Source: Thermoproteota archaeon (GTDB lineage Archaea > Korarchaeota > Korarchaeia > Korarchaeales > Korarchaeaceae). From it: a stretch of 63,280 nucleotides of DNA. Of this stretch, positions 19,937 to 58,036 are shown piece by piece (the stretch's first letter is position 1; each line of letters begins with the position of its first letter). The stretch spans positions 1-63,280 of the forward strand of contig WALU01000018.1 in NCBI GenBank assembly GCA_015522685.1, in the 5' to 3' direction. The translations under genes and the position numbers were made by a program. Below the pieces are notes generated by a model, which worked only from the letters and a program-made list of their open reading frames with translations, ran no database searches and was not told where the DNA came from.

Positions 19937-20992
19937 CTAACTTGAAATGATTCTCACGGCTGCTGCCTTCACTGATAATGTAAATTTCTTTCCCTTAGCT
20001 ATCGAGAGTTCTTCTAAAGCTTGCTTAGTCACAACCGATCTTAGAAGAACTCCCTTTACATTAAAAGTGACTAAATATGCTGAATTTCTGTATTCTATCT
20101 CTTCGACAATCCCCCTAAATATATTTTGGGCACTCATGCTACCCATCTTACCATGTACGTATACATCCTCGGGTCTTATCATCACTAACGTCTCATCTCT
20201 TCCATTATATATGGAAAAAAGTTCTAATTCACCTATCTTAACCCTCGTAAGGCCGCCCTTAGTGCCTATAATCTTCCCATGGTAAATATTCTCCCCACCA
20301 ACGAAGCGAGCCACTCTCCTATCTCTTGGATACGTGATTATATCATCCAAGGTACCAGCTCTCACTATCTTCCCATCATACATAATCGCCATCCTATCAG
20401 CCAGATAACTCGCTTCTAAGAAATCATGAGTAACATGGATAGCCGTAAATCCTATCTTTGAATGAATTTTCTTCAGGAATCGCTGTAACTCGGATTTGAT
20501 AACCTTATCTAAGGCAGAAAGAGGTTCATCCAATAGCAAAGCTCTAGGCTCCACTACTAAAGCCCTTGCCAGCGCAACTCTCTGTTGCTCTCCTCCGCTC
20601 AATTTACTTGGTTTTCTTTGGAGCAGATATTTTATCCCCATGATCTCTGAGACCTCCCTAACATTTGAGAATATTTCAAGATCTTTGTAGCCCCTAATTC
20701 TCAATCCAAAGGCTATATTATCGTAAACCGTCATGTGGGGAAATAAAGCATAGTTCTGAGGGACATAACTGAGATTCCTTTTTTCAGGAGGTAATTCCGT
20801 AGCATTCCTTCCATCTATAATTACTCTACCTTTTCTCGGCTTAACTATCCCCAGAATGGTCTGTAAAAGAAGAGTCTTACCAGCTCCTGATGGACCCATA
20901 ATAACAATGTATTCTCCCTTCTTAACCGAGAGATTTATTTCATCAAGTTTAAACTCCCCCAGGTCTACGCAGAGGTCCCTTAGCTCTATCAA
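19937..20992 (-). CDS. wtpC: Tungstate/molybdate ABC ATPase with TOBE domains
   Basis: GPSGAGKT, LSGGEQQRVALARAL, HVTHD, SAQNIF TOBE; in operon with wtpA. Confidence 0.88.
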   Translation of the reverse strand: MIELRDLCVDLGEFKLDEINLSVKKGEYIVIMGPSGAGKTLLLQTILGIVKPRKGRVIIDGRNATELPPEKRNLSYVPQNYALFPHMTVYDNIAFGLRIRGYKDLEIFSNVREVSEIMGIKYLLQRKPSKLSGGEQQRVALARALVVEPRALLLDEPLSALDKVIKSELQRFLKKIHSKIGFTAIHVTHDFLEASYLADRMAIMYDGKIVRAGTLDDIITYPRDRRVARFVGGENIYHGKIIGTKGGLTRVKIGELELFSIYNGRDETLVMIRPEDVYVHGKMGSMSAQNIFRGIVEEIEYRNSAYLVTFNVKGVLLRSVVTKQALEELSIAKGKKFTLSVKAAAVRIISS

Positions 20993-20993
20993 T

Positions 20994-21764
20994 TTATCTC
21001 CTCCCAGAAAACCTCCTTATAAGAACGAACGTTGTCAAACTTATTACAAGAAGAGGAATTGCTGTCGCCTTCGCTACTTGAAGTCCATAGGTCCAAAATC
21101 TCTCCATTATAAGTACGTTTATCGATTTAGGATAGTAGGCGACTATAAGCAAGGCACCAACCTCGCTCATTCCCCTAGCCCATGAGAGGAGCGATCCTGT
21201 CACCAGAGATCTGGAAGCCAGTGGGAGAGTTATTCTCCAAAATGTTTCAGATTCTGAAGCACCTAGACCCCTAGCGACATGCTCTAGATCAGTATCTACA
21301 CCTGAGAATCCATCTATAAGGGCATCTACCATTAAGGGAACTGAAACGAAAGCCATGACAGACACTATACCCCAAAATGAGTCCTCAAGCTTCATGCCCA
21401 AGTTTGAGAGTATAAAGCCAAGTGGAGTTCTTGAGTTAAAGGCAACTAGCAATGCTATACCAGCCACTCCATGAGGAATGACAAAAGGAAGGTCGACTAG
21501 GGCCTTTATCAAATCCCTCCCCTTAAAATCCCTCCTAGTTAGGAGATATGCCAGAGGAACTCCTGATATAATAAGAAGTACAGTTGCTATTATTGAAGCT
21601 GAAATCCCTATATAAAGCGCATAAAGAGCTTCACTATCGAGCCCATATTTAACTATCTCCTGAGAGGATGTACCTAATAGGAGTGAGGCGAGTGGAACTA
21701 CTATAAAAGATATTAAGAGGAGGGCCAGGGCAGCAAAACCCTGAATCATCCTTAAACTAGGCAA
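20994..21764 (-). CDS. wtpB: Tungstate/molybdate ABC permease
   Basis: DLPFVIPHGVAGIAL, ARGLGAS (EAA loop), WARGMSEVGA, AYYP. Confidence 0.88.
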   Translation of the reverse strand: MPSLRMIQGFAALALLLISFIVVPLASLLLGTSSQEIVKYGLDSEALYALYIGISASIIATVLLIISGVPLAYLLTRRDFKGRDLIKALVDLPFVIPHGVAGIALLVAFNSRTPLGFILSNLGMKLEDSFWGIVSVMAFVSVPLMVDALIDGFSGVDTDLEHVARGLGASESETFWRITLPLASRSLVTGSLLSWARGMSEVGALLIVAYYPKSINVLIMERFWTYGLQVAKATAIPLLVISLTTFVLIRRFSGRR

Positions 21765-21765
21765 A

Positions 21766-22758
21766 TTAGGGATTCACCTTTACTACATCCTTTATCTCGC
21801 TTGGGATATTGCCATATGCCAAAGGAGGCCTCACAGGTGGTTGCCCTGTCTCCTTAAATACATCAAGTCCCTTCGTAAGTAAGAACCTGATGAACTTTAA
21901 GGCTTGTTCTCTATTCTCAGCTACTTTAGTGACCGTAAGTCCATAGGCTATGGGGGCTCCTGTAAGCACTTTCTCCTTTTCAGATCCAGAGAATATATGA
22001 ACCTTAACTTTAGAGTAAACTTTAGCTAGGGCAGGAGATCCCATATTTATTTCAGGAGGTAGCTGCATATATTTCAGCCTATGCTGAACAGCAACGCTCT
22101 TGTATTCGAAAGCATAATCGAGGACACCAGCTTCCAGTAAAGAGAGGAGTTCAACGCTCTTAGGTCTTATGACTATACCCTTTCCCTTAATCTCTATGGG
22201 ATCCGGAACCCATGCTTCCATTCCCTTCACTTTGATATTAGTCTCGTTCATTAATAATTGATCCAAAGGCTTATTATAATATTTAGATGATAGTAAGAGG
22301 GTTATTACACTTCTATATCCACAAGGATCCTTATTTGGATCAGAGAAACCTAACTTCACATCTCCCTTCATTATGATGTCTGGCCAATTCTTCTCATTTA
22401 TTTCGCTAGCGTACTTACTTTTATTCGTGTAAGTGAGAACTATCTCATTGGTAGCGAAGATCACGTACCAATCCGCATATTTTGGATACATCATCTTTGG
22501 AATCAGCCTATAGTCCGCTGATGCTAGTATATCTGCTCTCTTTCCCAGCTCGGTTATCTTTCTAACTGCCTCTACACTGCCGCTTCCCTCAAGCCTTATT
22601 TCAACTGCTTTATCTGGATACATACTTATTATCTTTTGTAAGGGCACTGTTAGGGATCCAGCATGGAAGACTGTAATTGCACTTGGTTTGCTCTTAATTA
22701 GGAATGGCAGTGCAGCTAATATAACAATCACTATTAAAACCAATATAATCTTCTTCAT
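21766..22758 (-). CDS. wtpA: Tungstate/molybdate-binding protein WtpA
   Basis: FHAGSL, GSVEAVRK, ASADY, SDPNKDPCGYRS, RPKSVEL, YAFEYKSVA. True start MKKII at 22758 after SD GAGGTGA. Confidence 0.9.
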   Translation of the reverse strand: MKKIILVLIVIVILAALPFLIKSKPSAITVFHAGSLTVPLQKIISMYPDKAVEIRLEGSGSVEAVRKITELGKRADILASADYRLIPKMMYPKYADWYVIFATNEIVLTYTNKSKYASEINEKNWPDIIMKGDVKLGFSDPNKDPCGYRSVITLLLSSKYYNKPLDQLLMNETNIKVKGMEAWVPDPIEIKGKGIVIRPKSVELLSLLEAGVLDYAFEYKSVAVQHRLKYMQLPPEINMGSPALAKVYSKVKVHIFSGSEKEKVLTGAPIAYGLTVTKVAENREQALKFIRFLLTKGLDVFKETGQPPVRPPLAYGNIPSEIKDVVKVNP

Positions 22759-22781
22759 AGAGATCACTAGCTCACCTCGCT

Positions 22782-22803
22782 GGTTATCCGATATCGGATA
22801 ACC
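22782..22803. promoter_or_regulatory. Perfect 22-bp palindromic operator upstream of wtpA
   Basis: GGTTATCCGATATCGGATAACC lies between a TTTAAAAA TATA-like box (about 22826-22833, minus strand) and the SD. Confidence 0.8.
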
Positions 22804-22909
22804 GATCATGCATTCCCTATATTATTTTTAAAATTTGCGGTAGCGCCACGCATCTAGACTAAGAATCATTATGGCATAATGAAATTTATATCTTCAATAT
22901 CGCACGCGA

Positions 22910-23085
22910 TTACAGAGGCTTCAAGGGATTCTTCGATAGGCAGATAGCAAGAATTGCCGAAAAATCGCGCGCTACAGCAATTCTATAGCGTTGAGGTTAT
23001 ATTTTCCTCCATCAACTTATGATAAATGCTCATCTTAAGGATCTGCAATTATATAGTCAGGTAACTCTCTATTGAGATAGATGAT
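22910..23085. repeat. Direct repeat copy 2 (IPCT 3' fragment plus deleted remnant of ORF 19339)
   Basis: Matches copy 1; ATTGAGATAGATG near 23071 also echoes ATCGAGATAGATG near 19462. Confidence 0.9.
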
Positions 23086-23214
23086 TGATCAGTCCTCCAA
23101 GCTCCTTATCTCCAAGTAAGTATAAGGATCAAATGATCTGATTTGTTATATTATTGACATGAATTGAAGTTTTCGTAATCTCTTCAGTATAATTCCCATG
23201 ACTATTTTGAAAAC

Positions 23215-23415
23215 AAGAATACCCTCCCTCTCATATTATACATGATCAATCCCCTGATTGCTGCTAGCTCTGAAACTAAAGAAGAAAATGCTTTTAATAT
23301 TCTTTCTTAGATCTTCAGGATCTCCGGCCCCTATGAACAGTAAAATAGGGCCTATGTCATGCGACCTCGGATATTCAATGGCCAAAGCCCTAAGTAAAGA
23401 TTTTACAGCCATTCA
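23215..23415 (-). pseudogene. HEPN-domain gene remnant
   Basis: Minus strand reads MAVKSLLRALAIEYPRSHDIGP and, after a frameshift, LVSELAAIRG..MY, both typical archaeal HEPN segments. Confidence 0.65.
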
Positions 23416-23654
23416 AGATTATCTAAAGAGGATTTAACCTTATCTAAGCACGATAGGGAGCTTTAAGATAAGTTGCATATATCTCCAAGTTAATCAAATT
23501 TCTGTCACATCCCTCAGCTTGACATTCGGCTTAAGGATTCAATACCATCTTTCCTTCACCTTCCCCTCTCTCCACTCCAATGCTCAAGAGAGCCAGTAGC
23601 GCTGGTCGAAACAAAGCAGGAGTAGTGGTAGTGGAAACGGAAGCAATTGAGGAG

Positions 23655-24452
23655 CTACATCCGTTCGATCTTTGTCGTCAAATTAAGGGGCTTAGCGTAG
23701 TAAGGTGAGCTTGTGATGATAATATCCGCGAGCTGAGCATAATCTCCTATGTTCGTCTCATTTATGTCTCCAGCAACTGCTATCCTCACCTTTGGATTGA
23801 TCTTCCTCAGCTTAGGCACGAGTCCTCTAAGCTCTTCTGGTGCAGAGTGATCGAGCAGAAGAAGATCTGCCTTTAGAGCGAGGCTTAATGATCCTTCTGC
23901 ACTTGATGGCTCGATTTCAATACTCCTCAATGTTTCGAACTCTGGGGGTTCACCGGAAACTCTCAAGTGATTCTGAGTTATCAGAATTGAATCACTCAAT
24001 GAATTCCTGTGAAATGTCCCTCCACCAGCTCTTACAGCTTTAAGTTCGAAGTAACGCATCCCTGGATGGGTCTTCCGCGTTGTTGCGATTATTACATTCG
24101 GGTTGACCCTTCTTGCAATCCTGACTAACTTCTCCGTCGCTGTTGCTATCCCAGAGGTTATCGAGAGGAGAGTCTGACTTACACGCCAGACTTTGAAAAG
24201 TGTTCTAAGGATCCCGCGGGCGACTATGATTGCATCTCCTGGCCCGAACTGTATACCACTCGGTAAAAACTCTACGCTAAGGCCTTTGAGTTTCAGCCAC
24301 TCCACAAGCTCCTCAGTGCAAGCAGAAACTCCATCCTCACGAGTAAGGATTTTCATGGTACCTTCTCCTTGAATCCTAAGAAGTTCAGCTGTCTCATCAA
24401 AGTAGGGACAATCCTCATCAAGATAAAGATCAAGGAGATGAAGTGGATTCAT
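23655..24452 (-). CDS. modD: ModD protein (NadC/QPRTase-like)
   Basis: EDCPYFDET, SGIATAT, ATTRKTHPG, HRNSLSDSILITQNH; last gene of a modABC operon. Confidence 0.85.
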   Translation of the reverse strand: MNPLHLLDLYLDEDCPYFDETAELLRIQGEGTMKILTREDGVSACTEELVEWLKLKGLSVEFLPSGIQFGPGDAIIVARGILRTLFKVWRVSQTLLSITSGIATATEKLVRIARRVNPNVIIATTRKTHPGMRYFELKAVRAGGGTFHRNSLSDSILITQNHLRVSGEPPEFETLRSIEIEPSSAEGSLSLALKADLLLLDHSAPEELRGLVPKLRKINPKVRIAVAGDINETNIGDYAQLADIIITSSPYYAKPLNLTTKIERM

Positions 24453-24453
24453 C

Positions 24454-25512
24454 TTATCCTATCACCCTCACGCTTGATGCCTTGAACATAATATAGAGCT
24501 TCACTCCTTCCTTAATTCCAAGGAGTTCGGCAGCGTTCAGTGTTATCACAGCTCTCAATGTTAATCCTTCAACATCAAGAGTTAGCCAAAGAACATGACC
24601 GCGTTTTTTAACTTTTACTACCCTCGCAGGGAGAACATTTCGAGCGGAGTACATCCCTAATTCACGGGTGAGAATTATAGCCTCTGGACGTACAGAGAGT
24701 GTTACTTCCGCTCCTGGTTCTGCGACTTCTGTAGTGTAAATCGCAATATTACCAATACTGATAGTGGTAATATTACTACTCTCAAGAACTCTTCCATGGA
24801 AGAAGTTCGTGCCAACAAAGTCGGCAACAAAATCACTCGTTGGTTTGCAAAAAATCTCCTCAGGTGTTCCTTCTTGGACGATTCTCCCATCCTTCATTAC
24901 TGCAACTCTATTCGCGAGGGAGAAGACATCCTCAAAATCATGAGTGACATGGATAACTGTCGTGCTGTAGTCCTTCACAGCTTTTTTCACCATTGAACGG
25001 AGTTTCTCTCTTGTCTTCTCATCTAAGGCAGAGAATGGCTCATCCATCAGTAGCATTTTCGGTCTTATCACAAGAGCTCTTGCTATTGCTACCCGCTGCT
25101 GCTCACCGCCACTCAATGTTTTCGGCTTTCTATGGAGGAGTTGATCGATGCGGAGTTCCCTCGATATAGTCCTGACTTCTCTCTCGATTTCAGCTCTTGA
25201 CAGAGCTTTTTTTCTTAAGCCGAAGGCGATGTTGTCAAAGACGTTAAGGTGAGGGAAAAGCATGAAGTCTTGGTAAACTATACTCATGCCGCGATTCTCC
25301 GGCGGTAATGCCGTAATGTTTCGTCCAGCGAGAGTTATCTTCCCAGATTTGATGGGGTAAAAACCTGCTATTACCTCAAGGAGAACTGACTTACCGGCTC
25401 CTGTCGGCCCGATTATTGTGAGGTAATTATTCTTCTCTACGGTCAGAGAGACATCACGGAGGTGAAACTCACCAAGGTTTATGTTTAGATCTTTAACCTC
25501 TAACAGAGACAT
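24454..25512 (-). CDS. modC: Molybdate ABC ATPase with TOBE domains
   Basis: GPTGAGKS, LSGGEQQRVAIARAL, SARN, FKASSV. Confidence 0.88.
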   Translation of the reverse strand: MSLLEVKDLNINLGEFHLRDVSLTVEKNNYLTIIGPTGAGKSVLLEVIAGFYPIKSGKITLAGRNITALPPENRGMSIVYQDFMLFPHLNVFDNIAFGLRKKALSRAEIEREVRTISRELRIDQLLHRKPKTLSGGEQQRVAIARALVIRPKMLLMDEPFSALDEKTREKLRSMVKKAVKDYSTTVIHVTHDFEDVFSLANRVAVMKDGRIVQEGTPEEIFCKPTSDFVADFVGTNFFHGRVLESSNITTISIGNIAIYTTEVAEPGAEVTLSVRPEAIILTRELGMYSARNVLPARVVKVKKRGHVLWLTLDVEGLTLRAVITLNAAELLGIKEGVKLYIMFKASSVRVIG

Positions 25513-27262: not shown

Positions 27263-28297
27263 ATGGATAATCACGAAGAACTGAGAGTAGAGATCGATAT
27301 AAAGCTCCTCAAGGGTAGTATGATAATACTGGATAAACAATCAGCCCACCTTCTTAGGGCAATATCAAGAACAGGTTCACTTCTTGCTGCATCTAAACTT
27401 CTAGGGATGCCCTATTCTAAAGTTTGGAGGATTGTAATGAATATTGAGAGGAAATTTGGTCATAAGATAATAGCCCCTAGGAGAGGAGGCAAGTTAGGAG
27501 GAGGGACAAAGTTAACTGAATCGGGGAAAAAACTTCTTAGCATATACTCAAGGCTGGAGGAAACATATGGGATAAGTAGAGGACCCCTAGGTGATGTAAC
27601 GAAGATAATAAGGCCTGATCTCGTTATAATGGGCAGTCATGACCTCCTAATTGAGAAGCTTGTATATCTTGTCAGGAAAAAGGAGGAGAGAGAGGTAGAA
27701 GTTCATTGGATAGGATCCTATGGTGGTCTGCTATCTCTCTCGCTGGGAGAGGCCGATATATCTGGAATCCATCTCATGGATCCTAAGACCTCCCAGTATA
27801 ATGTTCCAATAGTGAAGAACATGTTTCCCAAGGGAGTAGCCCTCTTCAGAGGATTTGATAGGGAGGTAGGGTGGGTTTCCAGGGGAAATTTTTCCCCAGA
27901 GCGTTTACTTGAAGGAAAGGCTAGATTGGCCAACAGAAATAAGGGATCTGGAACTAGAATACTCATAGATAAGATCTTGGCGGAGCTATCTGAAGGGAAA
28001 GAATTTAGGGAGATGATCAGAGGATATGATGTAGAATACTTTACACATACAGCCACATGCAAGGCTATTGCTGAGGGAAAAGCAGATGTAACAATATCTA
28101 TAAGGCCTGTAGCTGAGATATTTAATCTCAAGTTCAAGAGGATACTCTGGGAGAGCTATGATCTAGCTGCAAGAGAAGATATCATAAGCAAAGAAGCTGC
28201 TAGGCTTTTTCTGAGGATGTTATCTAGTGATAATCTCATAAAAATAGCTAGGAGGGGTTATAGAATACCTAAAAATGCTGGGGAACGTATAATATAA
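27263..28297 (+). CDS. ModE-like wHTH plus periplasmic-binding-like (PBP) domain transcriptional regulator
   Basis: LLRAISRTGSLLAASKLLGMPYSKVW...RGGKLGGGTKLT (ModE N-terminus); GSHD, GSYGGL, GIHL, NRNKGSGTR (MoeA-associated PBP domain). Confidence 0.88.
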   Translation: MDNHEELRVEIDIKLLKGSMIILDKQSAHLLRAISRTGSLLAASKLLGMPYSKVWRIVMNIERKFGHKIIAPRRGGKLGGGTKLTESGKKLLSIYSRLEETYGISRGPLGDVTKIIRPDLVIMGSHDLLIEKLVYLVRKKEEREVEVHWIGSYGGLLSLSLGEADISGIHLMDPKTSQYNVPIVKNMFPKGVALFRGFDREVGWVSRGNFSPERLLEGKARLANRNKGSGTRILIDKILAELSEGKEFREMIRGYDVEYFTHTATCKAIAEGKADVTISIRPVAEIFNLKFKRILWESYDLAAREDIISKEAARLFLRMLSSDNLIKIARRGYRIPKNAGERII

Positions 28298-33630: not shown

Positions 33631-36147
33631 GTGAATATGATAAAAATGACTAGGAGAGAGTTTGTAAAATTAGCAGCTGTAACTGGGGCTTTAACTTTAA
33701 TGTTAGGAGAATCTGAACATACATTTAAGACATTAACAGCTGCCCAGAGCAAAACGCAAGTCAAATACATCCCTAACCTCTGCACTATGTGTGCTAACAG
33801 ATGTGGCATAACAGCTAAGGTGGTAAATGGAAAAGTAGTCAAGCTGGATGGAATTCCTCATCATCCGGCCAATAACGGGAAGATATGCGCTAGAGGCCAA
33901 TCAGGTATTGCCAGGCTCTACAATCCAGATAGAATAAAGGCCCCAATGATAAGGAGAGATAAGAGTAAACGTGGCACTTGGGAGGGATTCGAAGAAGTAA
34001 ATTGGAATACTGCGCTTGATGAAGCAGCTAAAAAGATAAAGAGGTACATGGATGAAGGGCACCCTGAGAAGATAGCCGTCATAAGCGGGTGGTGGGGCTG
34101 CGCAGTATATAAGCCCTACGTAGCAGCATTCATGCAAGCTATAGGCACCCCCAACTCTGCTGGAGCTACTATAAACAGTTGCATGTTCCCCGGAGCCTTT
34201 GGATGGCTTGCTACCCTAGGAGGTGCTAACCACGCTCACATAATCTCAGATCTAGAAGATGCTAAGTACATAATAGCTCTAAGGAGGAACTTGGCTGGAG
34301 TAGGAGGGGTCCCACATTCATGGAGGTTCGCGGAGGCCAAGAGAAGGGGAGCCAAGGTTGTGGCTCTAGATCCGAGGATGAGTGAGACTGCAGCCTTAGC
34401 TGATGTATGGATTCCGATAAAGCCTGGTACAGATCTAGCATTCTTATTGGCGATGGGTCACGTTCTTGTGAATGAGAAGTTATATGATGAGGCATTTCTG
34501 AAGAAGTATACTACAGTTCCTCTACTCCTCAACTCTGAGACAGGGGTACCTGTGAAGGTATGGGATGACAAGGCAACTGGATTGAAGAAGTACTTGGTGT
34601 ATGATCTATTACAGAAAAAAGCGGTATCTCATGATGAGGCATTAAATCCAGCTCTACTTGGGGAATATACTGTGAAGCTTGAAGATGGGACGACTGTAAA
34701 GGCTAAACCAGCTTTCCAGGTATTAGTTGATGATTTGCAGCAGTACACTCCGGAATGGGCATCCAAGATATGCGATGTGTCTTCAGATCTCATAGTTAAA
34801 ACAGCTAATGAGTTCGGCAGGACAAAGCCAGCAGTTATAGACCCAGGCTGGCATGATCCCCGCTATGAGAACTCGCTTCAGACTCATAGAATGATGGCAA
34901 TCCTTAATGCTATGATAGGGAATATAGATAGATATGGAGGTGTATCATTTAACGTTCCTGGAAGGGAAGTCAACCTTCCACCACCACCTCAGAACAGATA
35001 TGATGTGGTATGGGGCAAGAAGCATGGAATGCTTCCGCTACCACTTCCTAACTATGTGCCTCTCTACTATGCAATGACTAAGGGAGATCCATATCCAATA
35101 GAAATGGCTATAGTTATAGCTGGTAACCCGATTAGAACATGGAGCGGAGATAAGGAATGGAAGGAAGCATTCAAGAAGCTGAATGATGTTCTGGTGATCG
35201 ACGTCTTACCACAGGACACGACAATGTATGCTGATATACTGCTTCCTGACTCTGTCTATCTTGAGAAGGACTTCCCAATAAGCCATGCTGAGATGTCCTT
35301 GTATGGAGCCTTTGAAACTGCGATCGCTGCAATAAACCCGGTCTTTAACACAAAGCCTGAAATAATGATATTCGCCGAATTATCAAAGAGATTGGGTGTT
35401 TACGATAAGTTCATCAATAGCTTGGCTAAGATGCTCAAGGTAGATGCTGGTAAGCTAAGAAGATACTTTGACAGTGAGGGAATAAGAGGAATAAGGAGAG
35501 CCCAGGCTGAAGCCTATGGTATATCTCTAGATGAGATAGAGAAGAAAGGTTATGTGATGTTCGAGACCAAAGAGGAACTGATGGACACAATGCCATATAA
35601 GAAGCCACTGCATACTCCATCTGGTAAGGTAGAAGTTTATAGCCTTATGCTTGCCAAAATAACATCTATGGTAGGGGAAGATCCAATGTGGTCTCCTCTG
35701 CCTAAGTGGTTACCTCCAAAGGTAATGAGTGAGTATGAGAAGAACAAGGCGCCGAATGTCTTCTATTTTATTTACGGAAAGAGCCCTCTGAACAGCTACA
35801 CTCATACTACAGACAACGAGATGCTCGACTCCCTGCTTAGGCCAGATTACATAGGGGTGTGGATAAATACGAAGAGGGCTAAGCAGCTGGGCATAAAAGA
35901 TGGAGATAAAGTTAAGGTAACTAATCTGAAGACAGGAGAGGGTGGTGTAACTACAGCTTTCGTTACAGAGGCTATAAGAAAAGACACAGTATTTCTCAAC
36001 ACTCAATGGGGTATTGAAAGTAAAAAACTGAAGATAGCCTATAAGAGGGGAGGAGTTGCGCTAAACAAGCTATGGCCCTTTCAGTATGCGAGATTGATAC
36101 CTGGGATGTTGACCAATGAACTTCTTGTCAAGATAGAGAAAGTATAG
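33631..36147 (+). CDS. Tat-exported Mo/W-bisPGD oxidoreductase catalytic subunit (PsrA/PhsA/ArrA clade)
   Basis: TRREFVK twin-Arg signal, CTMCANRC...C FS0 cluster, CARG, DPR.SETA..AD.W.PIKPGTD, putative Cys ligand in NSCMF. Confidence 0.9.
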   Translation: MNMIKMTRREFVKLAAVTGALTLMLGESEHTFKTLTAAQSKTQVKYIPNLCTMCANRCGITAKVVNGKVVKLDGIPHHPANNGKICARGQSGIARLYNPDRIKAPMIRRDKSKRGTWEGFEEVNWNTALDEAAKKIKRYMDEGHPEKIAVISGWWGCAVYKPYVAAFMQAIGTPNSAGATINSCMFPGAFGWLATLGGANHAHIISDLEDAKYIIALRRNLAGVGGVPHSWRFAEAKRRGAKVVALDPRMSETAALADVWIPIKPGTDLAFLLAMGHVLVNEKLYDEAFLKKYTTVPLLLNSETGVPVKVWDDKATGLKKYLVYDLLQKKAVSHDEALNPALLGEYTVKLEDGTTVKAKPAFQVLVDDLQQYTPEWASKICDVSSDLIVKTANEFGRTKPAVIDPGWHDPRYENSLQTHRMMAILNAMIGNIDRYGGVSFNVPGREVNLPPPPQNRYDVVWGKKHGMLPLPLPNYVPLYYAMTKGDPYPIEMAIVIAGNPIRTWSGDKEWKEAFKKLNDVLVIDVLPQDTTMYADILLPDSVYLEKDFPISHAEMSLYGAFETAIAAINPVFNTKPEIMIFAELSKRLGVYDKFINSLAKMLKVDAGKLRRYFDSEGIRGIRRAQAEAYGISLDEIEKKGYVMFETKEELMDTMPYKKPLHTPSGKVEVYSLMLAKITSMVGEDPMWSPLPKWLPPKVMSEYEKNKAPNVFYFIYGKSPLNSYTHTTDNEMLDSLLRPDYIGVWINTKRAKQLGIKDGDKVKVTNLKTGEGGVTTAFVTEAIRKDTVFLNTQWGIESKKLKIAYKRGGVALNKLWPFQYARLIPGMLTNELLVKIEKV

Positions 36148-36159
36148 AAGGTGATTTAA

Positions 36160-36732
36160 ATGACCAAATATGGAATGGTTATAGATCTTGGTAGCTGCTT
36201 GGGTTGTGGAGCATGTATAGCTGCCTGTGATTTCGAGAATCAAACTCCATGGGAAGAAGGGAAGCGTAGAACTCACGTACCTGAGTTCATCTTTGGCGAA
36301 TATCCTAATGTAGAGAGGTTATTTGTACCAAGGCTTTGCATGCACTGCGAAGATCCGCCCTGCGTTGCAGTTTGTCCAACAGGAGCTAGTTATAAAAATG
36401 AGGACGGAGTCGTACTTGTGCGCTATGATATGTGCATAGGGTGTAAGTACTGTGTGGTTGCTTGCCCCTATAACGCTAGATATGTCGATGAGAGGAAACA
36501 CGCAATAGATAAGTGCACCTTCTGCTACAATAATAGAGTCTCTCAGGGGAGAGAACCAGCCTGCGTTGAGTCATGCGTGGGAGGAGCTAGAATATTCGGA
36601 GATTTGGAGGATCCCAACAGCGAAGTATATAAATTGATTCATTCGGGCGAAGCTGTTCCTCTGAGAGCAGACCTAGGAACTCACCCAAAGGTGAGATATA
36701 TATTCAGGCGCAAGAAGAGGGAGGGTGACTAA
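36160..36732 (+). CDS. 4x[4Fe-4S] electron-transfer subunit (PsrB/NrfC type)
   Basis: CLGCGACIAAC, CMHCEDPPCVAVCP, CIGCKYCVVACP, KCTFC...PACVESC. Confidence 0.95.
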   Translation: MTKYGMVIDLGSCLGCGACIAACDFENQTPWEEGKRRTHVPEFIFGEYPNVERLFVPRLCMHCEDPPCVAVCPTGASYKNEDGVVLVRYDMCIGCKYCVVACPYNARYVDERKHAIDKCTFCYNNRVSQGREPACVESCVGGARIFGDLEDPNSEVYKLIHSGEAVPLRADLGTHPKVRYIFRRKKREGD

Positions 36733-36734
36733 AG

Positions 36735-37697
36735 ATGATGAATCTGTTAATTCAGCATATTTGGGGGGTATATATAGCAATCTACCTATTCTTAGGAGGA
36801 ATGGGTGGAGGAGGAATGGTAGTAAGCTACTACTTCTGCTGCAGGAGAAATGATAACAAGCTTGCTGTGATCTCAGCGATCACTTCCCTCATAATAGTCA
36901 TAATAGGTGTACTCTTCCTGATGCTTGATCTGGAGAAGCCAGAAAAGTTCTACCTAGTCTTTGTGAGTCCCCATCTTAATCCTCATTCCATGATATTTAT
37001 AGGATCTTCTATACTAACGAGCTTCATAACATTCGGTCTCCTGTTTGTTACGGCAATAGAGTTTAAATGGCCGAGCTTCCTTGGGAAGATCATATCGCTC
37101 CTTCCATGGTATGGAAATAGGAGCTTTACATCTGCTATGGGCATTCTGGCATCAATAGCAGGGTTCCTAACGGCTTTCTATACGGGTGTACTCATAGGTG
37201 TGCTCAAATCTGCCCCATTCTGGCATACCCCTGCTTTACCCTTGTTGTTCGTGGCTTCGGCTTTCTCTACAGGGGTCGTAGGCGTTCTCCTAGTAAATGA
37301 GACAATAGGGATTATGGCTCCGAAAAGCGAGAGACATAAATACCAAGAATACTGCTCTATCTTAGGAGAGTGGGATGCGATCTTAATATCCATAGAGCTA
37401 TTAATCATATTCACATATATATTCCTGTTTACCTATGGACCAGAAGAGGCAGAGGCATCAGTTTATCTGCTGACTACCGGATCTCTCGCCCCATGGTTCA
37501 TGGGGGGGGTAGTTACAATGGGGCTTGCTATACCCTTCCTACTGGAATACTGGCATATATTCAGTGAAAGTAGAGGAGGAAAGCCCTCCTGCGCTTTACC
37601 AATAATAGCAGCGATTCTGGTTATTATAGGAGGATTAATCCTAAGGTATGTAGTACTATCAAGCGGTGTAATGACAATATTTCTTCCTCCCTCTTGA
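36735..37697 (+). CDS. NrfD/PsrC membrane anchor subunit
   Basis: WGVYIAIYLFLGG, DLEKP, YTGVL, PFW..P.LP.LF.ASA, GGLILRY. Confidence 0.92.
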   Translation: MMNLLIQHIWGVYIAIYLFLGGMGGGGMVVSYYFCCRRNDNKLAVISAITSLIIVIIGVLFLMLDLEKPEKFYLVFVSPHLNPHSMIFIGSSILTSFITFGLLFVTAIEFKWPSFLGKIISLLPWYGNRSFTSAMGILASIAGFLTAFYTGVLIGVLKSAPFWHTPALPLLFVASAFSTGVVGVLLVNETIGIMAPKSERHKYQEYCSILGEWDAILISIELLIIFTYIFLFTYGPEEAEASVYLLTTGSLAPWFMGGVVTMGLAIPFLLEYWHIFSESRGGKPSCALPIIAAILVIIGGLILRYVVLSSGVMTIFLPPS

Positions 37698-46764: not shown

Positions 46765-49700
46765 ATGGATGGTGGTAAAATGAAGGAGGCAGTTGGAGAG
46801 ATACCTAATGGTGAGAAAGAGTTTGCTCAATCTGCAAAGCACGCCCGAGAGTTGATAAAATACCCAGAACTTACTGAGGAGGAGCTTGGAGAGAGACTCA
46901 GAAATGTTCATTATGGTTATAGCTCCGGCCTTCCTTACAAGACCTTCTCTCTATGCCCAGAGAGTAGGAGGTTGGTTCAAGCACTAGTTTGGGAAGAAGA
47001 CAACAAAATATGGATAGCAAAGAAATGTCCAGAGGGGTTAATAACAGAGGTTTACTACGAGGATTCCTATCTATTCAAAAAGTTCATGAAATGGGCTTAC
47101 GATTGGAAGCTTTCTAGTTATAATGTTGAGAATACAGGAATAAATTGTCCATTTGATTGTGGCCTCTGCCATAGGCATCGCTCTCATACAAGCCTGCTTA
47201 ATATAGTCCTGACAAATAGATGTAATCTCTCATGCTGGTACTGCTTCCCCGGGAACGAAGAAGCATTATTTAGATTTGGTAGTGAAGTACGTCTAGCAAA
47301 GTTTGAAGATGTTGCTAAGACATTCTCCTTTGAGCATAAGGTCGAGATAGATGGGTTTAAGGGAGAGTACTCAATACCTAATGATCTTTACGTTCTTACC
47401 TTTAAGGAAGGAAAGGCGGAGTGGACAAGGGTTAGCAAGTTCCTTAGGAGAAAACATAAAGGAAAGATCCTTAGAATAATCACTCATACAGGGAGATTCA
47501 TTAGAACAACCCCGGAGCATAAGTTTTTCGTATATATAGATGGAGAACTTAGGAAAAGGAGAGCCGATGAACTCAGGCCCGGTGATGAGCTGATCATACT
47601 CTGGAACTTCGATCATGGAGAGACATTAACTCATATAGATCTTATAGAGGTCTTTAAGAAGCTCCCATATAAGGAAAAGGAGAAAACATACGTCAGAGGA
47701 ATCTCAAAGCTTAATCTCTTAAAGCTAAAGGAAAAGTACGGAGAGAAAGTGTACTCTTGGAGGAATAAGGATTCCATACCGCTTAGTGCTTTCTATGAAC
47801 TCGGCGGAAATGTTGACGCTGATAATCTACGCTTTGGGAGGGATGGAACTGCCTACGAGATACCTACTAGACTGGAGATAACCCCGACTTTAGCCAAGCT
47901 TATCGGCTACTTCATTGCGGATGGGAGTTATACCGACAAAGATCTCCGCATAACGGTCTCCCATAAGGATGTTGAGGAAGAGATAGTCAAGATCCTTGAA
48001 GAACTCAAACTTCCATATAGCTTCCTTCAGTGGAATGGAAAGGCTAAGCAGATAGTCATTGGGAGCAGACTTATGCGCTTGGTTTTCAAATACGCCCTTG
48101 GAGTACCTGAAAAAGCTGAGAATGAGAGGTTGCCCAAGGATTTCTTCAACTTTCCGCATGAGGCTAAACTATCTCTCCTTAGTGGACTCTTCAATGAGGA
48201 TGGCCATGTTGTCAGGGACAGAAGATATCTCAACATGGGATATACCAGCGTTTCAAGAGGTCTGATAAGAGATATGCTTTATCTTCTAGCATCACTTGGC
48301 ATCTTCACAAGAGTATATGCAGTGCCCAAGGAGAAAATGAAGGGTTCCAATTATGACCTTTACAAGCTATATATAGCAGGTACAGACCTAGTTAGGTTGG
48401 CAGATCTTCTTGATCTCAGGAGAGATCGCAAAGAGAGATTAGGAGAAATTGGAGACAGAAAGCCAGCCAAGATAACTCGCGTTGCAGATTTCTACATTGA
48501 CACGATTGAAGGAGTGACAGAGGAAAATTATGACGGTTACGTCTATGATCTTGAAGTTGAGAGCAATGGACATTCGTTTGTCGCCGCAGATGGCATCCTT
48601 GTGAGCAACTGCTTCTTCTATGCTAAGGAGGGGCAGCCAATATATGAGCCTACCTTAGATCAGGTAAGAATGATGCTCAGGAATGCTAAGGAGGAGCAGA
48701 CAATAGGAGCAAATGCAATACAGTTCACTGGTGGAGAGCCGACGTTGAGGGATGACCTTATAGAGATATTAAAGATAGCGAAGGAAGAAGGATACAGTCA
48801 CGTACAGCTCAACACAGATGGAATAAAACTGGCCTTCGATCCTGAGCTTGTGAGAAAAATAAAGGAGGTTGGAGTGAATACTTTCTATCTAAGCTACGAT
48901 GGCATGACTCCCCAAACTAACTGGAAGAATCATTGGGAGATCCCACTAATATTCGATAATGTCAGGAAGGTAGGTGGCCCGGGTATAGTCCTCGTTCCTA
49001 CAACAATAAGGAACGTGAATGATCATGAGCTGGGGGCGGTAATAAACTTCGGATTGAATCACTTGGACATAGTCAGGAGCATTAACATACAACCAATCTC
49101 CATGATAGGTAGAGTCCCCAAGAAGAATAGACAGATGTTCAGGATAACTATCCCTGGAGCTATTAAGAAGATAGAAGAGCAGACAAATGGAGCAGTAACG
49201 AAGGATGATTGGTACCCAGTTCCAATAGCTGGGCATATTGCTAGATTCTTCGAGGCATTTACTGGTAAGAAATACTATATGACTTCACATTTCGCATGCG
49301 GTGCTGCCACTTATATATTCCTCGATGGCGGTAAGGTCATTCCAATAACTAGATTTATAGATGTTGATGGATTTGTCGAATTTCTAGCCAAGAAAGCTGA
49401 GGAACTGGAGAATTGGAAGCGCTTAGGAAAGTTAAGCAAGCTTAAGGTTGGGGGAGAAATATTCCTCAAGTTTAGAAGTTTTTACGACTCTAAATATGCT
49501 CCTAAGAGTATAAGCGTCCTTAAGCTCGTAGAAAATGCTTTTGCCAAGGGAACTTATGAAGCTCTAGGCCAGTTCCATAAGAAGACTCTCTTCATAGGTA
49601 TGATGCACTTCCAAGACGAGTACAACTACGATGTTCAGAGGGTTGAGAGATGCGTTATTCACTACGCAATGCCAGATGGAAGGATAGTTCCATTCTGCGC

Positions 49701-49905
49701 ATTCAACGTCATCCCTGAGCTGTATAGAGATAAGGTACAAGCTCAATTCAGCTACTCTTGGGACGAGTGGAAGGAATTGCACCCTGATTGGGATTACAAG
49801 AAGGATAAGTACTTCAGAACAAAGGAATTTGTCGAGAAAATGAGGAAGAGTGAGCTCTACAGGAAAACCTACTTAGAGCTAAAGAATTATTTTGGGAGTA
49901 GCTAA
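46765..49905 (+). CDS. tes: Tetraether lipid synthase Tes (GDGT-MAS) radical SAM precursor containing an intein
   Basis: SLCP...KCPE, CPFDCGLC..H, TNRCNLSCWY|CF, QFTGGEPT, QP.S..GR, HFACG, MMHFQD.YN.D..RV.RC.IHY..PDGR.VPFC..N. Confidence 0.9.
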   Translation: MDGGKMKEAVGEIPNGEKEFAQSAKHARELIKYPELTEEELGERLRNVHYGYSSGLPYKTFSLCPESRRLVQALVWEEDNKIWIAKKCPEGLITEVYYEDSYLFKKFMKWAYDWKLSSYNVENTGINCPFDCGLCHRHRSHTSLLNIVLTNRCNLSCWYCFPGNEEALFRFGSEVRLAKFEDVAKTFSFEHKVEIDGFKGEYSIPNDLYVLTFKEGKAEWTRVSKFLRRKHKGKILRIITHTGRFIRTTPEHKFFVYIDGELRKRRADELRPGDELIILWNFDHGETLTHIDLIEVFKKLPYKEKEKTYVRGISKLNLLKLKEKYGEKVYSWRNKDSIPLSAFYELGGNVDADNLRFGRDGTAYEIPTRLEITPTLAKLIGYFIADGSYTDKDLRITVSHKDVEEEIVKILEELKLPYSFLQWNGKAKQIVIGSRLMRLVFKYALGVPEKAENERLPKDFFNFPHEAKLSLLSGLFNEDGHVVRDRRYLNMGYTSVSRGLIRDMLYLLASLGIFTRVYAVPKEKMKGSNYDLYKLYIAGTDLVRLADLLDLRRDRKERLGEIGDRKPAKITRVADFYIDTIEGVTEENYDGYVYDLEVESNGHSFVAADGILVSNCFFYAKEGQPIYEPTLDQVRMMLRNAKEEQTIGANAIQFTGGEPTLRDDLIEILKIAKEEGYSHVQLNTDGIKLAFDPELVRKIKEVGVNTFYLSYDGMTPQTNWKNHWEIPLIFDNVRKVGGPGIVLVPTTIRNVNDHELGAVINFGLNHLDIVRSINIQPISMIGRVPKKNRQMFRITIPGAIKKIEEQTNGAVTKDDWYPVPIAGHIARFFEAFTGKKYYMTSHFACGAATYIFLDGGKVIPITRFIDVDGFVEFLAKKAEELENWKRLGKLSKLKVGGEIFLKFRSFYDSKYAPKSISVLKLVENAFAKGTYEALGQFHKKTLFIGMMHFQDEYNYDVQRVERCVIHYAMPDGRIVPFCAFNVIPELYRDKVQAQFSYSWDEWKELHPDWDYKKDKYFRTKEFVEKMRKSELYRKTYLELKNYFGSS
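47242..48609 (+). mobile_element. Intein (456 aa) with LAGLIDADG homing endonuclease domain
   Basis: Starts CFPG; block B TTPEHKF; LIGYFIADG and LSGLFNEDG; block F/G VYDLEV...HSFVA.DGILVSN followed by extein Cys. Confidence 0.97.
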
Positions 49906-55296: not shown

Positions 55297-56208
55297 GTGG
55301 GTGGCGCGCTTATGGGCCTCAAAGAATTGTCAGAAATAATTAGGCTGAACTTCCTCCTATTAACACCGATAACCATATTCGTTGGAATGGCAGCGGCCAT
55401 ATACGACGGATATAGCTTCAAGCTGATAGATACTCTAATAGCACTATCTGGAGCTCTGCTGGCCCACATCTCAGTGAACTCCCTGAACAACTACTTCGAT
55501 TATAGATCGGGCATAGACGCTAAAACACCAAAGACCCCCTTCAGCGGTGGAATAAGAGCCCTCGTTGAAGGGAGAGCGGAACCGCACACAGCTCTATTCG
55601 TGGGTTCTATGGCATCCGCTCTAACTCTGCTGATTGCTATATACTTCCTTATAGAGATACCTCTAGTTTTCTTCATAGGATTGGTTGGCCTAGCCCTTAT
55701 CATCCTCTATACACCCCTCCTATCAAAAGTTCCATTCACATCCGAGCCTTCTGCAGGCATAGGCTTTGGACTGATGGTCTTAGGGATGTATGCAGTTGAA
55801 GCTGGTACCATCACTGGATCTGCTTGGCCCTCTTTCATAATAGTATCCATCTTGGTAGGTTTGCTTCTCTTCATAAACGAATTTCCCGATGCGGATATCG
55901 ATAAAGAAGCTGGGAGAAGGCACACAGTTATGATGCTAGGAAAGGAATCAGCCTCTAAGGTCTATGCGGCATCTGTCGTAATCAACTACGCTCTGATAGG
56001 ACTATTCTCCCTAACAGATCTGCTTCCTAAGGCATGCTTAATCTCCCTAATATCCTTACCGTTTGGCTATAGAGCTACCAAGGAAGCATTGAAATCTAAG
56101 AGTGAAGTTCCCAATATAATACCTGCAATGGCGAATAACCTTCTTATGGTGCTAACCACGATAACTGCTCTTGGAGTTGGTCTCTTAACAGGGATATTCT
56201 TAAAGTGA
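55297..56208 (+). CDS. UbiA-family prenyltransferase (MenA-like)
   Basis: NNYFDYRSGID, TPFSGG, NEFPD.DID..AGR. Confidence 0.88.
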   Translation: MGGALMGLKELSEIIRLNFLLLTPITIFVGMAAAIYDGYSFKLIDTLIALSGALLAHISVNSLNNYFDYRSGIDAKTPKTPFSGGIRALVEGRAEPHTALFVGSMASALTLLIAIYFLIEIPLVFFIGLVGLALIILYTPLLSKVPFTSEPSAGIGFGLMVLGMYAVEAGTITGSAWPSFIIVSILVGLLLFINEFPDADIDKEAGRRHTVMMLGKESASKVYAASVVINYALIGLFSLTDLLPKACLISLISLPFGYRATKEALKSKSEVPNIIPAMANNLLMVLTTITALGVGLLTGIFLK

Positions 56209-56710: not shown

Positions 56711-58036
56711 ATGAGGGCAGTTATTATAGGTGCTGGGCCTGCTGGTATGGCCGCAGCAAGTAGGATAAGAAAACATCTACCTGAAAGCGAGATAACCGTA
56801 ATAGAACGTACAAAGTATGTTAGCTTCGCTCTATGCGGTATCCCTTATTATGTAGGAGGGATTGTCAAGTCGCTGAATGATCTAATGTACTATCCTCCCA
56901 AATTCTTCGTGGAAAAGAGGAAAATAAACTTGGAACTTCAAGCTACTGCGGAGAGGATAGATCCAAGGGAAAGAATTGTGGTTTACAGGAAAGGAGATGA
57001 AGTTAAAGAACTGAACTATGACGTCCTTATAGTTGCTACAGGCGCTAAATCCAAACTGCTCCCAATACCAGGGATCGATGAGGATGGAGTTCTAACGGTT
57101 CATCATTTAGATGATGGTGAAGAGATTAGGAAGAGGTTATTCAAAGCTAAAAGCGCAGCAGTGATAGGAGCAGGGCTTAATGGCCTAGAATTCACTGAAA
57201 ACTTGGCAAGGCTGGGCAAGGAAGTGCACGTCTTTGAATACTTCAAATGGCCCCTTCCAAGGAGTTTGGATGAGGACATGGGCCTCATATTGAAGGATCT
57301 TCTTGTAAAGGACGTGAAGTTCCACTTCGGCTCTCCTGTAGAAAGCATAAGGAGAGCTGGCGATGTTCTGAGGATATCATCAGGAGATCTTTCCGTTGAG
57401 GTTGATCTGGTTCTAATCTTCACTGGGATAGAGCCATCTGTCGATCTGCTGAAGGATGCTGGCGCCAAGATAGGCGAAACTGGTGGAGTGAAAATCAACT
57501 CTAGGATGCAGACTGGTCTAGATTCTATATATGCATCAGGAGATAATGCTGAGATTATAAACAGAGTTACCGAAAAGCCTGATTGGATGCCCTTCGCTCA
57601 GATTGCCAATAAAATGGGATTAGTAGCAGGAGCTAATGCTGCCGGGAAGTATGTAGAATTCCCAGGCGCCGTTAAGACATGGACCGCTAAAGTCTTCGGC
57701 GTGGAGGTAGCAGGAACAGGCTTGACTGAGGCCGAAGCTAGGAAGATGAAATATGAAGCTAGGAGTGAGGTGATAAGGGGAAAGAATAAAGCTCATTATA
57801 TGCCAGAGCCAAAAGACATCTGGATAAAGGCAGTGATAAATAGTGATGGAACGGTCTTGGGAGTTCAGGCTATAGGTGAAGGGGCGCTAACTAGAGTAAA
57901 CGTAGCAGCTGCCCTTCTTCCATATAAGCCCAAAAGTATGGATCTAGTGTTTGCCGATATGGGATATGCACCGCCTCTGGCTCCTGTATGGGATCCCTTA
58001 GTTGTAATCGGCAGGAGGATTGATCCCATACTATAA
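56711..58036 (+). CDS. CoA-disulfide reductase / NAD(P)H:sulfur oxidoreductase-like flavoprotein
   Basis: GAGPAG, SFALCGIPY (single redox Cys), GAGLNGLE, YAPP..PVWDP. Confidence 0.88.
   Translation: MRAVIIGAGPAGMAAASRIRKHLPESEITVIERTKYVSFALCGIPYYVGGIVKSLNDLMYYPPKFFVEKRKINLELQATAERIDPRERIVVYRKGDEVKELNYDVLIVATGAKSKLLPIPGIDEDGVLTVHHLDDGEEIRKRLFKAKSAAVIGAGLNGLEFTENLARLGKEVHVFEYFKWPLPRSLDEDMGLILKDLLVKDVKFHFGSPVESIRRAGDVLRISSGDLSVEVDLVLIFTGIEPSVDLLKDAGAKIGETGGVKINSRMQTGLDSIYASGDNAEIINRVTEKPDWMPFAQIANKMGLVAGANAAGKYVEFPGAVKTWTAKVFGVEVAGTGLTEAEARKMKYEARSEVIRGKNKAHYMPEPKDIWIKAVINSDGTVLGVQAIGEGALTRVNVAAALLPYKPKSMDLVFADMGYAPPLAPVWDPLVVIGRRIDPIL

Follow-up and report, generated by a model that had tools for sequence, protein, structure and literature searches.

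The 63,280-nucleotide contig WALU01000018.1 of a Thermoproteota archaeon (Korarchaeales), referred to below as the window, carries on its forward strand a tes gene, which encodes tetraether lipid synthase (Tes, or GDGT-MAS, where GDGT stands for glycerol dialkyl glycerol tetraether) and is interrupted by an intein. The intein is a full-length class-1 element with a LAGLIDADG homing-endonuclease domain; it represents the allele known from Pyrococcus abyssi as the 'MoaA' intein and is inserted between the second and the third cysteine of the radical S-adenosylmethionine (SAM) motif CX3CX2C. Very probably, what the only tes gene of this genome harbors is primarily a selfish element at a conserved site, and any redox trap that goes with this site is a by-product of the insertion. 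The anatomy of the gene, the identity of the host protein and of the intein, the distribution of the element and the conflict between the intein and extein trees were established by the analysis.

Architecture of the interrupted tes gene

The window genome comprises 1.48 Mb in 63 contigs and is 92% complete. The parts of the gene are listed in Table 1, with residues numbered from Met1 of the 1046-residue precursor; the corresponding gene call in the protein database (P0001, 100% identity) starts at Met6 (nucleotide 46780) and gives 1041 residues. The junctions read ...TNRCNLSCWY / CFPGNEE...ILVSN / CFFYAKEG.... An earlier note on this DNA had read the same place as CNLSCWY-intein-CFF, and this reading is confirmed; the range 47221–48612 given there takes in the last seven residues of the N-extein, the whole intein and the codon of Cys+1. 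The two further observations of that note, namely that the third radical-SAM cysteine is at the same time the +1 nucleophile and that the precursor presents a C-W-Y-C1 arrangement (C157-W-Y-C160), are both directly visible in the sequence.

The assignment of the N-extein is based on the match of Pfam Zn_ribbon_HMPTM to residues 58–98 and on the alignment with residues 19–128 of the structure 7TOL; the N-terminal [4Fe-4S] motif CPFDCGLC..H extends from 47146–47169 onward. The GGE motif FTGGEPT lies within the C-extein at 48724–48744. The NCBIfam model intein_Nterm begins at residue 160 exactly (40.1 bits with a cut-off of 24.5), and intein_Cterm covers residues 592–616 (32.4 bits with a cut-off of 15.6). 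The Pfam domains Intein_splicing (E-value 8.8e-20) and LAGLIDADG_3 (2.7e-16, in two stretches) are located between the zinc-ribbon and Radical_SAM domains, and the structure of PI-PkoII (2CW7) matches the window protein with an E-value of 6.5e-18. These Pfam values and the E-value of 0 for the Tes model NF045703 put the matches to an intein and to Tes far beyond chance.

The residues Cys1, Thr and His of block B, Asp and His of block F, the terminal Asn and Cys+1 are invariant in 37 of 37 aligned intein-bearing homologues. The intein ends with Ser614-Asn615, as the earlier note had stated, so that the penultimate His typical of inteins is replaced by Ser in the window. A minority of active inteins lack the penultimate His. 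Its replacement here is therefore not treated as disqualifying; the P. abyssi orthologue, for which reviews report activity and splicing under reducing conditions, likewise ends with Ser-Asn. Removal of the intein leaves 590 residues when counted from Met1, which is the length that had been predicted, or 585 residues when counted from Met6; the intein-less homologues are 577–606 residues long.

The host protein is Tes and not MoaA

The window protein is recognized by the NCBIfam model NF045703 ("tetraether lipid synthase Tes, intein-containing") with 1930.7 bits (cut-off 1700, E = 0) and by NF045702 (Tes) with 664.8 bits (cut-off 450). Its best match among solved structures is the GDGT-MAS of Methanocaldococcus jannaschii (7TOL, E-value 4.9e-127), which is aligned in two stretches, both abutting the intein: query residues 49–158 correspond to chain residues 19–128, and query residues 611–1002 to chain residues 125–516. 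The alternative assignment of the host as MoaA was rejected, as three MoaA models give only 62.0–63.7 bits against cut-offs of 231–325. A genuine archaeal MoaA (368.3 bits, cut-off 325.25) is encoded on another contig of the same genome (G000:C63:27751-28641). All these data uphold the view of the earlier note that the host carries Tes/GDGT-MAS and not MoaA motifs.

A second, intein-free tes was not found above the cut-off in the window genome, taken at its completeness of 92%; of the other nine Tes matches of the genome, all but the N-extein part of the same tes gene reach at most 73 bits.

A search of a large protein collection returned 684 relatives at E ≤ 0.001; the best 120 of these 684 are called the listed homologues below. 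The columns of the candidate cluster ligands are invariant. In P0001 numbering they are C123, C127, C130 and H133; C148, C152 and C611 (the last being Cys+1); and C840, C958, C973 and M942. The assignment of these residues to individual clusters is suggested by the alignment with 7TOL. A 2026 review attributes to Tes a radical-SAM cluster, an N-terminal cluster bound by three Cys and His, a C-terminal cluster bound by three Cys and Met (three [4Fe-4S] clusters in all) and a rubredoxin-like iron. The invariant columns can supply the first three of these metal sites. The rubredoxin-like mononuclear iron site (three Cys and His) is not preserved: the window protein has CPES...CPEG at this place (46954–46965 and 47026–47037) and retains two of the four positions. 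Of 115 listed homologues, 85 lack two iron ligands in the same way, irrespective of the presence of an intein.

Distribution of the intein and its insertion site

The listed homologues comprise 58 intein-less proteins (577–606 residues) and 62 proteins longer than 800 residues. An intein at the same site as in the window (site a) could be parsed in 56 of the 62 long homologues, or in 57 if P0049 is included; four long records are truncated at the N-terminus, and P0114 has an intein at a second site only. The Ser-Asn ending is found in 55 of the 56 parsed inteins, the remaining one ending with Gly-Asn. The motif CX3CX2C including Cys-3, Trp-2 and Tyr-1 is identical in intein-bearing and intein-less listed homologues alike (116 of 120); the other four are N-terminally truncated.

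The insertion site is equally evident from comparison with intein-less genes. The alignment of the window protein with P0029 by BLAST breaks at reference residues 160/161. At the DNA level, the two 30-nucleotide flanks of the intein are adjacent to each other in six intein-less loci, stand 1359–1365 nucleotides apart in three intein-bearing loci and are separated by 1368 nucleotides in the window. The loci for this comparison came from a scan of named genomes, in which intein-less Tes of Micrarchaeota predominated among the matches listed.

Among the relatives of the window organism the intein is rare. Of 38 genomes searched in the order, 35 have a Tes match, and only two of these show a split Tes, namely the window genome (G000) and that of a congener (G020); at the class level (40 genomes) no further split Tes was seen. 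At the phylum level (about 42 species genomes) the intein is present in two of the 32 genomes that are at least 80% complete. The nearest exteins (92% identity; P0029–P0034 and locus L017) belong to intein-less Tes, and the two flanks abut in their DNA. The metagenome-assembled genomes (MAGs) of these closest relatives bear different labels, 'Candidatus Korarchaeota archaeon' for P0032 and 'Thermoproteota archaeon' for L017.

Shortened inteins are also found at site a, with 235 residues in P0039 and 382 residues in P0021. Neither protein has a Pfam LAGLIDADG domain, which suggests decay of the endonuclease domain.

Tes has a second intein site, located just before the SAM-binding GGE motif (NAVQL-S...VHN-TGGEPT). 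The inteins at this site begin with Ser1, end with His-Asn and are followed by Thr+1. They are present in P0017, P0024, P0026, P0039, P0112 and P0114, five of which have inteins at both sites. The window gene has no intein at the equivalent position (about 48724–48744).

Histories of the intein and of its host

The relationships of the window intein differ from those of the exteins flanking it. The window exteins share 84% (N-extein) and 89% (C-extein) identity with the congener P0002, and 61% and 78%, respectively, with P0003. For the intein the identity is 76% with P0003, about 71–72% with P. abyssi and 68% with the congener P0002. In the intein tree the window sequence is sister to P0003 with a Shimodaira-Hasegawa-like approximate likelihood ratio support (SH-aLRT) of 99. 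In the extein tree it groups with the intein-less P0029/P0032 (support 97) and then with P0002/P0164 (100), and P0003 is placed with Thermococcus atlanticus (99). The extein data reject a pairing of the window with P0003 (log-likelihood difference of 270.7; p = 9.6e-66 in the approximately unbiased (AU) test). In the distant hosts P0036–P0040 the inteins are 58–60% identical to that of the window, as against 36–49% for the exteins.

Horizontal transfer of the intein into the window lineage is likely. The distribution of the element and the conflict of the trees fit the usual life cycle of a homing intein, in which the element invades a conserved site, passes from lineage to lineage, suffers decay of its endonuclease and is finally lost. 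Sporadic presence together with the tree conflict fits a selfish mobile element better than a conserved switch.

Splicing and the possible role of the redox state

The course of splicing proposed here follows the established chemistry of inteins. The precursor is expected to be inactive because the intein splits the second and the third cysteine of CX3CX2C and the loop that would hold the radical-SAM cluster is not contiguous. In the first step Cys160 (Cys1) would undergo an N-S acyl shift. Attack by Cys616 (Cys+1) would then bring about the transesterification, Asn615 would cyclize, and an S-N shift would join CNLSCWY to CFF. The expected product is a Tes of 585–590 residues, in which the former +1 nucleophile would become the third ligand of the cluster. 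Oxidation may be expected to hold the precursor in the unspliced state, with Cys-3 standing beside Cys1 and Cys+1, as in the report on the P. abyssi orthologue.

The neighborhood of Cys-3 and Cys1 is unavoidable because the insertion site lies inside CxxC. Cys-3, Trp and Tyr are the same in Tes with and without the intein; therefore the trap is a consequence of the site, and adaptation is not visible in the sequence. From this we infer that the redox effect is more likely incidental to the site than an evolved gate. The redox-gated synthesis of GDGT, proposed in the earlier note, is not supported in the form in which it was stated and stays conjectural: Cys-3 is invariant in all Tes motifs, and the intein is patchy in its distribution and discordant with the host tree.

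Of the alternatives, an adaptive redox gate survives best, and it is nevertheless unlikely. According to it, a disulfide between Cys-3 and Cys1 (or between Cys1 and Cys+1) would block the first step of splicing, Tes would mature only in a reduced cell, and the intein would be kept for this benefit. The window protein does share the C-W-Y-C1 context, the site and 71% of intein residues with the P. abyssi protein, for which control by a disulfide is reported in the reviews PMC3922620 and PMC10663303; the former also reports a Cys1/Cys+1 disulfide for the Pab PolII intein. Furthermore, Tes carries three [4Fe-4S] clusters according to the 2026 review, the window gene is the only tes of its genome, and the allele as a whole conserves Cys1 and the Ser-Asn ending. 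However, intein-less Tes possesses the identical Cys-3 and Trp-Tyr, so that no adaptation of the extein can be seen; 33 of the order's 35 Tes-bearing genomes lack the intein, as do the nearest relatives; the endonuclease motifs are intact; and the trees of the intein and of the exteins disagree. Judging from gene content, the hosts are presumably anaerobes of reducing habitats. The open-access literature search yielded no experiment on a precursor in the Tes context under the Tes name.

A wider version of this idea, somewhat less probable still, makes the 'MoaA' redox-trap intein a switch of membrane lipids: the sole Tes precursor would be held back by a disulfide or by binding of a metal or cluster, and the change from an archaeol bilayer to a GDGT monolayer would thereby be tied to the redox or Fe-S status of the cell.

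It is quite improbable that the junction acts as a gate for metals or clusters, in which Zn or an Fe-S cluster would be held by C153, C157, Cys1 and Cys+1; Cys1 would thereby be blocked, and splicing would depend on the availability of the metal or cluster. Zn inhibits several inteins by binding to junction residues. The four cysteines are clustered at the splice junction by sequence, and Cys+1 must adjoin Cys1. Both the precursor (CNLSCWYC-FP) and the product (CNLSCWYC-FF) keep CX3CX2C, Cys1 serving as its third cysteine before splicing, and this holds in all 57 site-a homologues. Against this stands the speculative character of the idea, which is drawn from the sequence alone, and the fact that Cys1 is common in archaeal inteins whatever their context.

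The suggestion that the insertion is degenerate and does not splice, and that tes is a pseudogene here, could call upon the Ser in place of the penultimate His and can for practical purposes be dismissed, since the frame of 1046 codons is open, every other catalytic residue is in place and invariant, nearly all relatives, among them the experimentally studied P. abyssi intein, have the same Ser-Asn ending, the exteins share 92% identity with intein-less Tes, and no other tes occurs in the genome.

Several points weigh against the interpretation of the intein as a primarily selfish element. Splicing and redox sensitivity of the window copy are themselves predicted and not observed properties. 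The invariant Cys1, the Ser-Asn ending in 55 of 56 inteins and the use of one site across very distant hosts could reflect selection for regulation. When a grouping of the window with two congeners, chosen after the tree had been seen, was put to the AU test with the intein alignment, it was not rejected at the 0.05 level (p = 0.051); at this value vertical descent within the genus may also account for the intein, and for the same reason the transfer is called likely rather than shown. Finally, many of the genomes behind the distribution counts are incomplete MAGs.

Genomic context

The tes gene is followed, 25 nucleotides downstream, by a gene for a 92-residue DUF3213 protein (PF11491; 49930–50208, forward strand). 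Among the 94 loci examined, a homologue of this gene lies directly downstream of tes in ten others (L017, L094, L019–L023 and L025–L027), all of which have Tes of the Thermococcus type. The DUF3213 protein may be a small partner of Tes. The genes upstream of tes, encoding TetR and a NifX-like protein, have no counterpart in this position in the other loci of the 94, the congener locus L094 included; a conserved upstream regulator of tes was rejected on the basis of this confinement.

The Tes of the window is about 78–79% identical to Thermococcus Tes, nests beside that of Palaeococcus ferrophilus in the extein tree and shares the tes-DUF3213 pair, a hint that the tes region has moved from one lineage of hyperthermophiles to another.

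Two further genes of the window are situated 5–7 kb downstream of tes on the forward strand: a UbiA-family prenyltransferase (55297–56205) and a flavoprotein resembling CoA-disulfide reductase (56711–58033; TIGR03385, 390 bits, below the cut-off of 579). No link of either gene to tes was seen beyond their position in the window.

The segments 33631–37694 (+), 19940–25512 (-) and 27263–28294 (+) contain a molybdopterin oxidoreductase operon of the Psr/Nrf type (catalytic, 4Fe-4S and NrfD subunits), two sets of genes for tungstate ATP-binding cassette (ABC) transporters (WtpA, WtpC-like) and a gene of molybdopterin biosynthesis. These genes are in keeping with the real MoaA encoded on another contig. 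A protein of 643 residues (17356–19284, forward strand) resembles the bifunctional enzyme of di-myo-inositol-phosphate synthesis from Thermococcales (NF041135, 234 bits, below the cut-off of 580). Di-myo-inositol-phosphate is a compatible solute of hyperthermophiles.

Inteins also occur in at least three other open reading frames (ORFs) of this genome, given by locus at the end of Table 1.

Table 1. Parts of the interrupted tes gene (positions in the window) and other intein-bearing ORFs of the same genome (contig, with locus coordinates in brackets).
Feature	Position	Strand	Remarks
tes precursor ORF including stop codon	46765–49905	+	1046 aa from Met1; NF045703 aligns residues 6–1043 to model positions 1–1040 of 1040
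N-extein: rubredoxin-like zinc-ribbon domain, N-terminal [4Fe-4S] motif, first two radical-SAM cysteines	46780–47241	+	
CNLSCWY, aa 153–159	47221–47241	+	Cys-7 and Cys-3 are the first two Cys of radical-SAM CX3CX2C
Intein proper, C160–N615	47242–48609	+	456 aa, class-1 type, Cys1, LAGLIDADG homing-endonuclease domain
Block B, TTPEH, aa 248–252 (TxxH: T249, H252; 1046-aa numbering)	47506–47520	+	T and H invariant in 37 aligned intein-bearing homologues
First LAGLIDADG motif, LIGYFIADG	47899–47925	+	Acidic residue present; Asp column at least 90% conserved
Second LAGLIDADG motif, LSGLFNEDG	48178–48204	+	Acidic residue present; Asp column at least 90% conserved
Block F region, VYDLEV ... GHSF	48541–48579	+	Asp and His invariant
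Block G, LVSN	48598–48609	+	Terminal Asn615, Ser614 where His is expected; VSN-CFF starts at nt 48601
Cys+1 (C616)	48610–48612	+	Splicing nucleophile; predicted third radical-SAM cluster Cys after splicing
C-extein: remaining radical-SAM core and C-terminal cluster domain	48610–49902	+	7TOL residues 125–516; NF045702 positions 102–484
B12-dependent ribonucleotide reductase, intein-bearing, 1288 aa	G000:C28 (L095:1622-5485)	-	
HerA-like ATPase, intein-bearing, 852 aa	G000:C26 (L096:1652-4207)	-	
RtcB-family protein, intein-containing, 955 aa	G000:C38 (L097:1633-4497)	-	NF038162, 1397.7 bits (cut-off 1150)

Significance of the host assignment

Taken by itself the interrupted gene is unremarkable: both the intein allele and the enzyme family have been catalogued before, and automatic annotation would identify them correctly. 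The intein allele and its redox trap are already on record under the name MoaA, and the host is on record as Tes in NCBIfam and RefSeq. A search of the open-access literature found no paper linking inteins with Tes or with GDGT synthesis. According to public annotation and the present tests, the standard natural example of redox-controlled splicing actually resides in a tetraether lipid synthase. This correction of the host moves any adaptive story from the molybdenum cofactor to membrane architecture. The regulatory idea may be seen as a reasonable re-labelling of an existing hypothesis. The data on distribution argue that gating, if there is any, is a side-effect of the landing site of a mobile element. 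According to a review, deletion of tes in Thermococcus kodakarensis leaves the cells without any GDGTs and less able to survive at high temperature; the gating idea is testable because this deletion exists.

Comparison with known systems

The closest studied relative of the window intein is the 'MoaA' intein of P. abyssi. Its host protein (CAB49617.1 / WP_010867823.1 / Q9V0T6; P0121) was found by a cluster look-up. It is named "Molybdenum cofactor biosynthesis MoaA" in UniRef and now "tetraether lipid synthase Tes, intein-containing" in RefSeq, and a 2023 review (PMC10663303) still calls it "oxidoreductase MoaA". The name MoaA is a misnomer for this protein. The alignment of the two inteins (325 of 457 positions identical, 71%), which the earlier note had called closely similar, places them in the same allele, and the whole proteins are 74% identical. 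Both are inserted at the identical site (CNL[NS]CWY-CFP...VSN-CFFYA), contain Cys-3, Cys1 and Cys+1, have two LAGLIDADG motifs and end with Ser-Asn (VSN-CFFYA across the junction). They differ in host lineage and by 29% of their sequence. That a native Cys-3/Cys1 disulfide controls the activity of the P. abyssi intein had been cited in the earlier note as established, and the reviews PMC3922620 and PMC10663303 do state it.

The window protein fits the family NF045703 from end to end and differs from it in no family-defining feature, although its identity to the other listed members does not exceed 79%. The named carriers of the intein include Pyrococcus sp. NA2, Thermococcus celer, T. camini, T. 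zilligii, T. litoralis and Archaeoglobus profundus, along with MAGs labelled Thermoproteota. The named Thermococcus Tes among the listed homologues are about 76–81% identical to the window exteins.

With the GDGT-MAS of M. jannaschii (7TOL, 7TOM) the window protein shares the N-terminal CX3CX2C..H motif, the radical-SAM CX3CX2C motif and the C-terminal Cys/Met positions, which are aligned and conserved. In contrast to the window protein, the M. jannaschii enzyme has no intein, and it contains CPIC...CPEHG where the window protein has CPES...CPEG.

Two other inteins with such disulfides are described in PMC3922620. In the Ssp DnaE intein a Cys-3/Cys1 redox trap was engineered, with the same CxxC arrangement as in the window, and in the Pab PolII intein, whose host is a DNA polymerase, a Cys1/Cys+1 disulfide can lock the catalytic Cys. 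Unlike in both these systems, the partner cysteines in the window protein are native Fe-S ligands of the host enzyme.

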